Positions 10,169 through 40,035 of a DNA stretch of 64,000 nt are shown here, one piece after another (within the stretch, counting starts at the first letter, position 1; the number at the start of each line of letters is the position of its first letter). Source of the DNA: Escherichia coli (GTDB taxonomy: Bacteria > Pseudomonadota > Gammaproteobacteria > Enterobacterales > Enterobacteriaceae). The translations under genes were made by a program, and so were the position numbers. Below the pieces are notes generated by a model. It saw only the letters and a list, made by a program, of their open reading frames with translations. It did not search any database and had not been told where the DNA came from. The stretch lies in assembly GCF_024502345.1 (NCBI RefSeq), contig NZ_JALDNN010000001.1. One strand, given 5' to 3'.

Positions 10169-10798
10169 ATGACCTTAGAATGGTGGTTTGCCTACCTGCT
10201 GACATCGATCATTTTAAGCCTGTCGCCAGGCTCTGGTGCAATCAACACTATGACCACCTCGCTCAACCACGGTTATCGCGGCGCGGTGGCGTCTATTGCT
10301 GGGCTTCAGACCGGACTGGCGATTCATATTGTGCTGGTTGGCGTGGGGTTGGGGACGCTATTTTCCCGCTCAGTGATTGCGTTTGAAGTGTTGAAGTGGG
10401 CAGGCGCGGCTTACTTGATTTGGCTTGGGATCCAGCAATGGCGCGCCGCTGGCGCAATTGATCTTAAATCGCTGGCCTCTACTCAATCGCGTCGACATTT
10501 GTTCCAGCGCGCAGTTTTTGTGAATCTCACCAATCCCAAAAGTATTGTGTTTCTGGCGGCGCTATTTCCGCAATTCATCATGCCGCAACAGCCGCAACAG
10601 CCGCAACTGATGCAGTATATCGTGCTCGGCGTCACCACTATTGTGGTCGATATTATTGTGATGATCGGTTACGCCACCCTTGCTCAACGGATTGCTCTAT
10701 GGATTAAAGGACCAAAGCAGATGAAGGCGCTGAATAAGATTTTCGGCTCGTTGTTTATGCTGGTGGGAGCGCTGTTAGCATCGGCGAGGCATGCGTGA
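10169..10798 (+). CDS. rhtB: LysE/RhtB-family homoserine/homoserine-lactone exporter
   Basis: 209-aa membrane ORF, LysE-family; divergent partner of rhtC as in K-12. Confidence 0.9.
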
Positions 10799-18029: not shown

Positions 18030-18886
18030 ATGAATAACACATTACTTCCATCAATTAATATTCCCTGTACACTTTTCGAAACTATTAGTTTATTTGATGA
18101 TTATTCTGCTGATGATATGCAATATGGTGATATGGTGATATGGTAGAACAAGATTTTCTCTCACTCGGCCTAAGCGATATCTCAGCAAAAGTTGATCCTT
18201 ACAGACTTATTAAATACCATTTCCCTAGCCCAGGTTCTATTAATGTTGCTTTTAGTGCCTCAAGTTCCGGAACAAAAATATCACAACGTGAATGCACTGA
18301 TATTTTATTTGCAGAAATGAAAGAACTAGCAAAAATGTTTTCCTTTTTTGGACAATATAAAACACTTATCGAAGATCTGATTGAACATTTTAGATATGGA
18401 AATGGCAGCAATTTTCATAGCCAACAATTAAATTTATCTTTTCATGAAAAAATAAATAAATATGGTTATAATAGTCCAATACGAATAATCAAAGAATGTA
18501 TCGAAAATGGCATTAATTCAACTCCCTCGACAGGATACCAACCTCTTATCCTGCAAAGCATTAAAACCAAATTACTTTCATCAAGACTAAATAAATTTAA
18601 TGACTTCGAGGACAGTTTTAATGGCTTAGGAATCAGTGTTCATGATATTTCAGCTCAAAAAATATCTCTTTTAAGTTTTCAAAAATACGCTATAGGATGG
18701 AGTGCAACAATTCATTTTGTAGCACAGGACCACTTCGGTCTTGATGTAACTGATATCAAAAACAAGACTTACAGCAAATATAGATTTTTTCGCATATGGT
18801 TCTTTTTACAACGGCATAAAGACTTTGCTTTCAAACCTTTTTTCACCAATTTTAACACTATCGAAAGAATCGAAAATTATCTATGA
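18030..18886 (+). CDS. Hypothetical protein, first gene of accessory two-gene cassette; currently split: 38-codon leader ORF (18030-18146) plus 248-aa ORF (18140-18886) separated by an 8-bp tandem-repeat frameshift
   Basis: ATG 18030 preceded by AAGGA at 9 nt; removing one 8-bp repeat unit fuses the two ORFs into about 283 aa; AT-rich; no recognisable family motif by eye. Confidence 0.55.
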
Positions 18887-35296: not shown

Positions 35297-36502
35297 ATGA
35301 CGGAACAAGAAAAAACCTCCGCCGTGGTTGAAGAGACCAGGGAGGCCGTGGACACCACGTCACAACCTGTCGCAACAGAAAAAAAGAGTAAGAACAATAC
35401 CGCATTGATTCTCAGCGCGGTGGCTATCGCTATTGCTCTGGCGGCGGGCGTCGGTTTGTATGGCTGGGGTAAACAACAGGCCGTCAATCAGACCGCCACC
35501 AGCGATGCCCTGGCTAACCAACTGACGGCATTGCAAAAAGCCCAGGAGAGCCAAAAAGCCGAGCTGGAAGGCATTATTAAGCAACAAGCTGCACAGCTTA
35601 AGCAGGCGAATCGTCAGCAAGAAACGCTGGCAAAACAGTTGGATGAAGTCCAACAAAAGGTCGCCACCATTTCCGGCAGCGATGCTAAAACCTGGCTGCT
35701 GGCTCAGGCCGATTTTCTGGTGAAACTCGCCGGACGGAAGCTGTGGAGCGATCAGGACGTCACGACCGCTGCAGCGTTGCTGAAAAGTGCAGATGCCAGC
35801 CTGGCGGATATGAATGACCCGAGTCTGATTACCGTTCGTCGGGCAATTACCGATGATATCGCCAGCCTTTCTGCAGTTTCGCAGGTGGATTATGACGGCA
35901 TCATCCTTAAGCTTAATCAGCTTTCAAATCAGGTAGATAACCTGCGTCTGGCCGATAATGACAGCGATGGTTCGCCGATGGATTCCGACGGTGAAGAGCT
36001 TTCCAGTTCCATCAGCGAATGGCGTATCAATCTGCAAAAAAGCTGGCAGAACTTTATGGACAACTTCATTACGATTCGCCGTCGTGATGACACCGCCGTA
36101 CCGCTGTTAGCGCCAAATCAGGATATCTATCTGCGCGAAAATATTCGCTCTCGCCTGCTGGTCGCAGCACAAGCTGTACCGCGTCATCAGGAAGAGACTT
36201 ATCGCCAGGCGCTGGAGAACGTCTCCACCTGGGTACGTGCTTACTACGATACTGATGATGCCACCACCAAAGCGTTCCTCGACGAGGTGGACCAGTTAAG
36301 CCAGCAAAATATCTCGATGGATCTTCCGGAAACCCTGCAAAGCCAGGCGATGCTGGAAAAACTGATGCAGACTCGCGTACGTAACCTGCTGGCACAACCG
36401 GCAGCGGGGACAACGGAAGCTAAACCTGCACCTGCACCTGCACCTGCACCTGCACCTGCACCGCAAGGTGATACTCCGGCAGCCGCGCCGCAAGGAGAAT
36501 AA
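35297..36502 (+). CDS. hemX: HemX (uroporphyrinogen-III C-methyltransferase-like membrane protein), contains (AP)n repeat
   Basis: 401-aa ORF with N-terminal TM segment, coiled-coil region and C-terminal [13 protein letters not shown] tract. Confidence 0.9.
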
Positions 36503-36504
36503 CC

Positions 36505-37701
36505 ATGCTAAAAGTGTTATTACTCTTTGTTTTGCTGATTGCGGGGATAGTGGTTGGCCCGATGATTGCCGGTCATCAGGGTTACGTGCTGATCCAGACT
36601 GACAACTACAATATCGAAACCAGCGTCACGGGCCTGGCGATTATTTTGATTCTGGCGATGGTAGTGCTGTTTGCCATTGAGTGGCTACTGCGGCGGATCT
36701 TCCGCACAGGCGCACACACCCGTGGGTGGTTTGTCGGACGTAAGCGTCGTCGTGCCCGTAAGCAGACCGAACAGGCGCTGCTGAAACTGGCGGAAGGCGA
36801 TTATCAGCAAGTTGAAAAGCTGATGGCGAAAAATGCCGATCACGCGGAACAACCGGTGGTGAACTATCTACTGGCTGCCGAAGCCGCGCAACAACGTGGT
36901 GATGAAGCACGCGCCAACCAACATCTGGAACGCGCAGCAGAGCTGGCCGGCAATGACACCATTCCGGTAGAAATCACCCGTGTACGTCTGCAACTGGCCC
37001 GTAATGAAAACCATGCTGCACGCCACGGCGTGGATAAGCTGCTGGAAGTTACGCCACGCCATCCGGAAGTATTACGTCTGGCGGAACAGGCGTATATCCG
37101 CACAGGTGCATGGAGTTCGCTGCTGGATATCATCCCATCAATGGCGAAAGCCCATGTTGGTGATGAAGAACATCGTGCAATGCTGGAACAACAGGCATGG
37201 ATTGGCCTGATGGATCAGGCGCGTGCCGATAACGGTAGTGAAGGTTTGCGTAACTGGTGGAAAAACCAAAGCCGGAAAACGCGTCATCAGGTAGCGTTGC
37301 AGGTGGCAATGGCGGAACATCTTATTGAATGTGACGATCATGATACTGCCCAGCAAATTATCATCGATGGCCTGAAACGCCAGTACGACGATCGCCTACT
37401 GCTGCCGATTCCTCGACTGAAAACAAACAATCCGGAACAGCTGGAAAAAGTGCTGCGCCAGCAAATCAAAAACGTCGGCGATCGCCCGCTGTTGTGGAGC
37501 ACACTGGGCCAGTCACTGATGAAGCACGGAGAATGGCAGGAAGCATCGCTCGCCTTCCGCGCAGCGCTGAAACAACGTCCGGACGCCTACGATTACGCAT
37601 GGCTTGCCGACGCGCTGGACAGACTGCACAAGCCGGAAGAAGCTGCAGCGATGCGTCGCGACGGTTTGATGTTAACGTTGCAGAACAACCCACCACAGTA
37701 G
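36505..37701 (+). CDS. hemY: HemY, TPR-containing inner membrane protein
   Basis: 398-aa ORF with two N-terminal TM helices; synteny. Confidence 0.9.
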   Translation: MLKVLLLFVLLIAGIVVGPMIAGHQGYVLIQTDNYNIETSVTGLAIILILAMVVLFAIEWLLRRIFRTGAHTRGWFVGRKRRRARKQTEQALLKLAEGDYQQVEKLMAKNADHAEQPVVNYLLAAEAAQQRGDEARANQHLERAAELAGNDTIPVEITRVRLQLARNENHAARHGVDKLLEVTPRHPEVLRLAEQAYIRTGAWSSLLDIIPSMAKAHVGDEEHRAMLEQQAWIGLMDQARADNGSEGLRNWWKNQSRKTRHQVALQVAMAEHLIECDDHDTAQQIIIDGLKRQYDDRLLLPIPRLKTNNPEQLEKVLRQQIKNVGDRPLLWSTLGQSLMKHGEWQEASLAFRAALKQRPDAYDYAWLADALDRLHKPEEAAAMRRDGLMLTLQNNPPQ

Positions 37702-38379: not shown

Positions 38380-40035
38380 ATGGAATTTTCGTTTTCACCC
38401 AAACTTCTTGTTGTTGCTGTCGCCGCCGCTCTTCCTCTCATGGCCAGCGCAGCAGATACCCCGTCAACTGCCACCGCACGCAAAGGCTTTGCCGGATACG
38501 ATCACCCAAACCAGTATCTGGTTAAACCGGCGACCACTATTGCCGACAACATGATGCCAGTAATGCAGCATCCGGCGCAGGATAAAGAAACCCAGCAGAA
38601 GCTGGCAGAACTTGAGAAAAAAACCGGTAAGAAACCGAATGTGGTTGTTTTCTTGCTGGACGATGTGGGCTGGATGGACGTCGGTTTTAACGGTGGCGGC
38701 GTGGCGGTAGGTAACCCTACACCAGATATCGACGCCGTTGCCAGCCAGGGGCTGATTTTAACTTCGGCGTATTCTCAACCAAGCTCTTCCCCAACCCGCG
38801 CCACTATTCTCACCGGACAATACTCCATCCACCACGGCATTCTGATGCCGCCAATGTATGGGCAACCGGGCGGGCTGCAAGGGTTAACCACGCTGCCGCA
38901 ACTGCTGCACGATCAGGGCTACGTCACCCAGGCCATCGGGAAATGGCATATGGGGGAAAACAAAGAGTCGCAGCCGCAGAACGTTGGCTTTGATGATTTC
39001 CGTGGCTTTAACTCGGTGTCTGATATGTACACCGAATGGCGCGATGTTCACGTAAACCCGGAAGTGGCCCTGAGTCCGGACCGTTCTGAATACATCAAGC
39101 AATTACCATTTAGCAAAGATGACGTTCATGCGGTGCGCGGCGGCGAACAACAGGCCATTGCCGACATTACGCCGAAATATATGGAAGATCTGGATCAACG
39201 CTGGATGGAATATGGCGTTAAGTTCCTCGACAAGATGGCGAAGAGTGATAAGCCTTTCTTCCTCTATTACGGCACTCGCGGCTGTCACTTCGATAACTAC
39301 CCGAACGCCAAATATGCGGGTAGCTCTCCGGCACGCACCTCGTATGGCGACTGCATGGTGGAAATGAACGATGTGTTCGCTAATCTGTATAAAGCACTGG
39401 AGAAAAACGGTCAGCTTGATAACACGCTGATTGTCTTTACCTCCGATAACGGACCGGAAGCCGAAGTACCGCCGCACGGACGCACACCGTTCCGTGGTGC
39501 GAAAGGATCTACCTGGGAAGGCGGCGTTCGCGTTCCGACTTTCGTGTACTGGAAAGGGATGATCCAACCGCGTAAATCTGACGGTATTGTCGATCTGGCA
39601 GATCTCTTCCCTACCGCGCTGGATCTGGCAGGGCATCCTGGCGCGAAAGTGGCGAATTTAGTGCCGAAAACCACCTTTATCGATGGTGTGGACCAGACAT
39701 CTTTCTTCCTGGGAACAAATGGTCAGTCTAACCGTAAGGCCGAGCACTACTTCCTCAACGGTAAACTCGCTGCTGTGCGTATGGATGAATTCAAGTATCA
39801 CGTCCAGATTCAGCAACCTTACGCTTATACCCAGAGCGGATATCAGGGTGGATTCACCGGCACAGTAATGCAAACAGCCGGATCGTCGGTGTTTAACCTC
39901 TACACCGATCCGCAGGAGAGCGACTCTATCGGCGTGCGCCATATTCCGATGGGTGTACCGCTACAGACCGAAATGCACGCGTATATGGAGATCCTGAAAA
40001 AATATCCACCACGCGCGCAGATTAAATCTGATTAA
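38380..40035 (+). CDS. aslA: Arylsulfatase (Ser-type sulfatase)
   Basis: 551-aa ORF with signal peptide and sulfatase signature [11 protein letters not shown] (S-x-P-x-R). Confidence 0.9.

Follow-up and report, generated by a model that had tools for sequence, protein, structure and literature searches.

We identified a perfect hexanucleotide repeat near the 3′ end of hemX in this Escherichia coli genome as the known VNTR locus CVN014, present here as allele 6. The repeat lies in the last 10% of hemX, and its copy number very probably changes by replication slippage within a tolerated, disordered and near-neutral C-terminal tail of HemX. The DNA analysed was a stretch of 64,000 nucleotides (NCBI RefSeq assembly GCF_024502345.1, contig NZ_JALDNN010000001.1), hereafter the window, to which all coordinates refer. 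The features of the locus are as follows.

35297 to 36502, plus strand: hemX coding sequence, 401 aa (open reading frame list, Pfam PF04375, hydropathy, and RefSeq annotation of orthologous loci).
36395 to 36499, plus strand: codons of the HemX C-terminal tail, residues 367-401, rich in Ala, Pro, Gln, Glu and Thr, predicted to be unstructured and holding the repeat (AlphaFold2 and the 80-species comparison).
36401 to 36420, plus strand: CVN014-R primer site, GCAGCRGGGACAACGGAAGC, whose end is 4 nt upstream of the array (0 mismatches; 0 matches expected by chance).
36425 to 36460, plus strand: perfect (CCTGCA)x6 array, the VNTR core of CVN014 (regular-expression scan, codon table, sequence, and TRF).
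36492 to 36497, plus strand: hemY Shine-Dalgarno sequence AAGGAG, inside the last hemX codons (Q-G-E) and 32 nt downstream of the array (sequence; conserved across genera).
36505 to 37701, plus strand: hemY coding sequence, 398 aa, starting 2 nt past the hemX stop codon (open reading frame list, Pfam HemY_N and TPR domains, and RefSeq annotation).
36524 to 36547, minus strand: CVN014-F primer site, TCCCCGCAATCAGCAAMACAAAGA, within the first hemY codons (0 mismatches).

The regular-expression scan returned a single CCTGCA run with exactly six units (36425-36460), and positions 36420-36465 read ..gct aaa (cct gca)x6 ccg caa.. in the hemX frame. TRF reported the same array at 36424-36462 with period 6, 6.5 copies and 100% matches, and its score of 78 was the highest in the window. 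Perfect period-6 runs of 36 nt are expected by chance about 1e-13 times in 64 kb on both strands, and the scan found no other hexanucleotide array of at least three copies in the 64-kb window. The array encodes (Pro-Ala)6-Pro at HemX residues 377-389, with P377-A388 specified by CCT GCA x6 and P389 by CCG. As a unit of 6 bp spans two codons, the gain or loss of one copy changes the protein by one Pro-Ala and leaves the reading frame intact. An earlier sequence-only reading of this DNA had described an in-frame hexanucleotide tandem repeat near the 3′ end of hemX, as the scan, the codon table and the open reading frame list also show. It had placed five units at 36425-36454, one short of the actual six; the peptide that it wrote out (P377-A388 plus P389) was correct, and itself implies six units. 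Elsewhere in the window, TRF listed further short perfect tandem repeats, GCCGCAACA x2.9 and ATATGGTG x2.9, at 10582-10607 and 18122-18144, respectively.

CVN014 is reportedly a locus of the generic E. coli MLVA, GECM-7 / GECM-10, attributed to Lindstedt et al. 2007 and Lobersli et al. 2012. We matched the primers of this locus to the window and confirmed them in Table 1 of PMC8143711, a later citing paper. That table gives these sequences as CVN014 F and R and credits them to Lindstedt et al. 2007, and the paper converts product size to allele as copies = (product size - 111)/6. In the window the two primers are convergent and bracket the array, and the resulting amplicon (36401-36547) is 147 bp long, so that (147 - 111)/6 = 6, the same as the direct count. 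The same formula applied to the K-12 amplicon gave 2, as do the two units in its sequence. The window array and CVN014 thus share the locus, the 6-bp unit and the 111-bp offset, their allele ranges and frequencies are comparable, the polymorphism extends to members of one clone, and nothing differs between the two. Since both primers, the formula and the MLVA literature agree, the feature is an already-known typing marker, an identity that the sequence-only reading had missed.

The published record of this marker is one of high variability. MLVA papers rate CVN014 as the locus with the greatest variability within the generic E. coli scheme; one study found it the most polymorphic, with nine alleles, a range of 4-15 and a Nei's D of 0.83 (PMC3519732). 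Within ST131 alone its alleles ranged from 2 to 11, and it was the commonest single-locus variant (PMC3407997). Among Swedish ESBL E. coli, the reported frequencies were 15% for allele 2, 13% for allele 5, 20% for allele 6, 11% for allele 8 and 17% for allele 9 (PMC5217547, Table 3). The open-access MLVA papers that we found do not mention that the CVN014 repeat lies in hemX or that it codes for (Pro-Ala)n, and none of the open-access papers found names hemX and CVN014 together. Searches of the literature for hemX along with tandem repeats or MLVA returned only an unrelated Salmonella SNP table, and those for the CCTGCA unit forms as an E. coli VNTR returned nothing relevant.

We examined variation within the species by megablast of window positions 36150-36750, which matched 5,425 of 5,426 complete E. 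coli genomes; the matches listed were always at features annotated hemX and hemY. In an evenly spaced quantile sample, the lengths of the subject segments matched by these 600 query bases ran 576, 582, 588 and onwards up to 648, always 6 apart. One locus per length class was fetched, and the hemX 3′ ends were compared among 14 complete E. coli genomes. Length differences among the fetched loci corresponded to the number of perfect CCTGCA units alone (2-12, 14 and 22), with flanks identical save for one G/C SNP. K-12 MG1655 carries 2 units and an O157:H7 strain 12, and the 6-copy allele of strain S21 is identical to that of the window. One strain, NCTC11023, lacks the tract altogether: in this natural 0-copy deletion, (PA)n and the adjoining QGDTP are gone, and HemX is 384 aa long. 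All 14 alleles examined keep the frame, the C-terminal ..PQGE and the stop codon.

These comparisons bear directly on what the sequence-only reading had expected of the locus. It had given HemX as 401 aa, in line with the open reading frame list, and had attributed the greater length relative to K-12 to repeat expansion; HemX of K-12 MG1655 has 393 aa, and four CCTGCA units (2 versus 6) account exactly for the 8 residues between the two proteins. Its proposal that copy number varies without a frameshift was borne out by the sequenced alleles with 0, 2-12, 14 and 22 copies, and an identical count in all strains, which it had named as the outcome that would speak against it, is not what the 5,425 genomes show, as their lengths step by 6.

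Two side observations concern the flanks. The G/C SNP falls at window position 36468, 9 nt downstream of the array, and distinguishes GGT (Gly) from GCT (Ala), that is, QGD from QAD; both flank types span short and long arrays: for example, arrays of 2, 3 and 12 copies have QAD, and those of 4-11 and 14 copies QGD. In NCTC11023, the hemX 3′ end also carries a T-to-I substitution near the deletion. The CVN014 PCR product of this strain would fall below the nominal zero-repeat size.

To describe the allele distribution, we ranked genomes by array length with a synthetic 29-copy query. The longest allele had 22 copies and was found in the O111:NM strain 2010C-3053, where it was confirmed by sequence; the next longest had 21 (5 genomes), 20 (3), 19 (4), 18 (2), 17 (9) and 16 copies (10). 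As estimated from 60 evenly spaced quantiles of the length ranking over 5,425 genomes, the median was 6 copies, the maximum 22 and the Simpson diversity about 0.9. The common alleles in this quantile sample were 2, at about 17%, then 5 and 6, each at about 15%, and 7, at about 10%. With a species median of 6, the window carries the median allele. This genome-based estimate is close to the frequencies published in PMC5217547, and the complete genomes extend the observed range of CVN014 to 0-22 copies. Short tandem repeats can collapse or expand in some assemblies, and the array length in the window could in principle be a sequencing or assembly artefact. We give this almost no credence, as an array of 36 bp is well within single reads, strain S21 and about 15% of the sampled complete genomes have the identical 6-copy allele, and PCR fragment sizing by independent laboratories yields the same allele range.

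We next consider where the repeat falls in the protein. HemX matched Pfam PF04375 with an E-value of 3.8e-108 and 361 bits (cutoff 25.9), residues 130-363 aligning to profile positions 2-235 of 236, and the repeat falls outside this domain, which ends at residue 363. An AlphaFold2 model of HemX, built on the 80-species ortholog alignment and of moderate quality overall (mean pLDDT 61.6), placed the last helix at residues 348-366 and gave residues 367-401 a pLDDT of about 31-34 and no secondary structure. The tail is accordingly predicted to be disordered, although low pLDDT is not proof of disorder. A sequence search of the PDB found no solved structure of any HemX-family protein. In the hydropathy analysis, HemX had just one strongly hydrophobic segment (about residues 36-56), with a Lys-rich stretch before it; by the positive-inside rule, this suggests that it is a bitopic protein with its N-terminus inside and its C-terminus outside. 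On the basis of this one segment and the lysine-rich stretch before it, the tail is probably periplasmic.

Only 12 residues follow the tract, and there is neither a Pfam domain beyond it nor any predicted secondary structure past residue 366. On the predicted structure, the (Pro-Ala)n tract is a terminal tail and not an inter-domain linker, because it comes after the final helix predicted for the HemX domain and lies in a low-confidence, compositionally conserved Ala/Pro tail. The sequence-only reading had called the tract a linker, and this wording needs correction along with the unit count, its interpretation being otherwise supported. Alternating Pro-Ala sequences are familiar from the APAPAPAP hinge of OmpA, the Pro-rich spacer of TonB and the Ala-Pro linkers of pyruvate dehydrogenase E2, all of which are expected to be extended and poorly structured. 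The HemX tract shares this alternating composition, whereas the OmpA, TonB and E2 segments connect two folded domains and after the HemX tract there are just 12 residues and no domain. We therefore did not assign it to the inter-domain linkers of the OmpA-hinge or E2-linker type, which join two folded domains.

We then extended the comparison to other species by recovering hemX loci from 80 Enterobacteriaceae species. In all 80, conserved HemX sequence ends at ..LMQTRVRNL(L/M)AQP and gives way to a variable tail in which Ala, Pro, Glu and Thr abound. This tail varies in sequence and keeps its composition, being Ala/Pro-rich and about 25-55 residues long, and in nearly all of the 80 species HemX ends in ..(A)PQGE* (window 36488-36502). 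Perfect CCTGCA arrays were found in E. albertii (6 copies) and the cryptic Escherichia clades (7 copies). At the orthologous site, CCTGCA/GCACCT was also expanded in Citrobacter sp. NCU1, Awk 4 and R56, with 10, 14 and 13 copies, respectively, and Raoultella ornithinolytica had 4 copies. Genera with mixed Pro and Ala codons at the site showed no expansion. This cross-species pattern fits a mutational process that would need identical units.

That one hexamer recurs at one and the same site in Escherichia, in Raoultella and in three species of Citrobacter could also reflect selection for a (PA)n tail, and not shared mutational propensity alone. More broadly, (Pro-Ala)n might act as a stiff spacer that tunes how far the HemX C-terminus extends, or what it interacts with, in the envelope, its variation being kept by selection in the manner of contingency loci. 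An Ala/Pro-rich tail of about 25-55 residues is indeed kept by all species, the arrays remain perfect, and their distribution is bounded, mostly at 2-12 copies. However, nothing folded lies beyond the tract, and a 0-copy deletion allele exists naturally. K-12 and about 17% of genomes have only 2 copies when others have 22, and close relatives differ widely, as with alleles 2-11 in ST131. In addition, hemX is dispensable in the Keio collection, in which the hemX deletion is viable and less sensitive to gentamicin (PMC12282077), and changes in copy number, being in frame, do not switch hemX on or off. Such a spacer function is therefore improbable in our assessment. The related proposal that the length of (Pro-Ala)n is subject to diversifying or stabilising selection, for instance if it sets the periplasmic reach of the ..PQGE end, would, if true, explain why the same CCTGCA expansion occurs in Escherichia, several Citrobacter species and Raoultella; we consider it equally unlikely, as beyond this cross-genus recurrence we found no positive support for a selected length.

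The conserved end of HemX calls for separate comment, as the last hemX codons coincide with the hemY Shine-Dalgarno sequence (CAAGGAGAATAA). Despite the highly variable tail before it, the ..PQGE end is kept, probably for the sake of the downstream gene, as the same nucleotides form the hemY ribosome-binding site. With the Shine-Dalgarno sequence embedded in these codons, and the hemY start codon 2 nt after the hemX stop, copy number might modulate hemY translation through mRNA structure at the Shine-Dalgarno sequence. This sequence is predicted to be base-paired, so the sequence upstream of it could matter in principle. However, partition-function folding with 0-22 copies gave the same unpaired probability throughout for the Shine-Dalgarno sequence (0.0), the AUG (0.64) and the initiation region (0.29-0.30), and the predicted pairing is with hemY codons 5-9 and not with the repeat, which makes an effect of copy number on hemY highly improbable. 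The predicted partner, within window positions 36490-36530, reads UUAUUACUCUUUG in hemY codons 5-9. A hairpin at the Shine-Dalgarno sequence would agree with hemY being translationally coupled to termination on hemX. Its predicted minimum free energy of -16.2 kcal/mol was not statistically distinctive (z = -1.6), and the species alignment contained no clear compensatory changes in it. Downstream of hemY, a 551-aa open reading frame (38380-40035) is sulfatase-like, which would be consistent with the K-12 map, with aslA beside hemY.

We return to slippage in a tolerated tail, the reading that we favour for the variation of CVN014. Slipped-strand mispairing between identical 6-bp units would alter the copy number, each slippage step adding or removing one Pro-Ala dipeptide with the frame kept. 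Tail lengths from 0 to at least 22 dipeptides would be tolerated and would accumulate as near-neutral polymorphism. Tolerance of such length changes would follow from the position of the tract, in a tail past the last helix of the HemX domain that ends 12 residues later. In support of slippage, the arrays are uninterrupted, the alleles form a stepwise series, and close relatives show wide differences. That so short an allele as the 2-copy one is common agrees with little slippage when copies are few. On either strand, the six-unit array can also fold on internal TGCA palindromes (-5.9 and -7.1 kcal/mol), and such hairpins could stabilise slipped intermediates. From these observations together we infer slippage as the mechanism and near-neutrality of the resulting lengths; the periplasmic location assigned to the tail is inferred likewise. 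The data themselves show the array, its frame, its series of alleles, its identity with CVN014 and that it lies outside the folded domain.

Comparable loci are known from other bacteria. STTR5 and STTR6 are 6-bp in-frame coding VNTRs used in Salmonella Typhimurium MLVA. Like the hemX array, they are short perfect repeats that change stepwise and fast enough to split close isolates (see PMC5183578); the likeness to STTR5 in particular is a probable one. They differ from it in lying in another gene of another species. The contingency loci of Haemophilus, Neisseria and Campylobacter are phase-variable genes with slippage in perfect short tandem repeats. The hemX array resembles them in mechanism, as slippage would act on a perfect short repeat inside a gene, but its unit is a multiple of 3 and it lies at the 3′ end, so that a change in copy number never shifts the frame or turns hemX off. 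A phase-variable contingency locus was rejected as a classification, the alleles with 0-22 copies all keeping the frame, the C-terminal residues and the stop codon.

For the biology of hemX, the repeat opens no new question and does not help to define the function of HemX. Its importance lies in typing. Among the markers of the generic E. coli MLVA, CVN014 discriminates best, and it is already used for outbreak and clone sub-typing, a role that near-neutral accumulation of tail lengths would explain. The present analysis adds the 0-22 range and the predicted disordered Pro-Ala tail, whose length apparently matters neither to the folded HemX domain nor to the hemY initiation region as predicted. 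It also indicates that the marker can be scored directly in assemblies by counting CCTGCA units at the 3′ end of hemX, and that a CVN014-like VNTR may likewise be variable or of use in Raoultella ornithinolytica and the three Citrobacter species.
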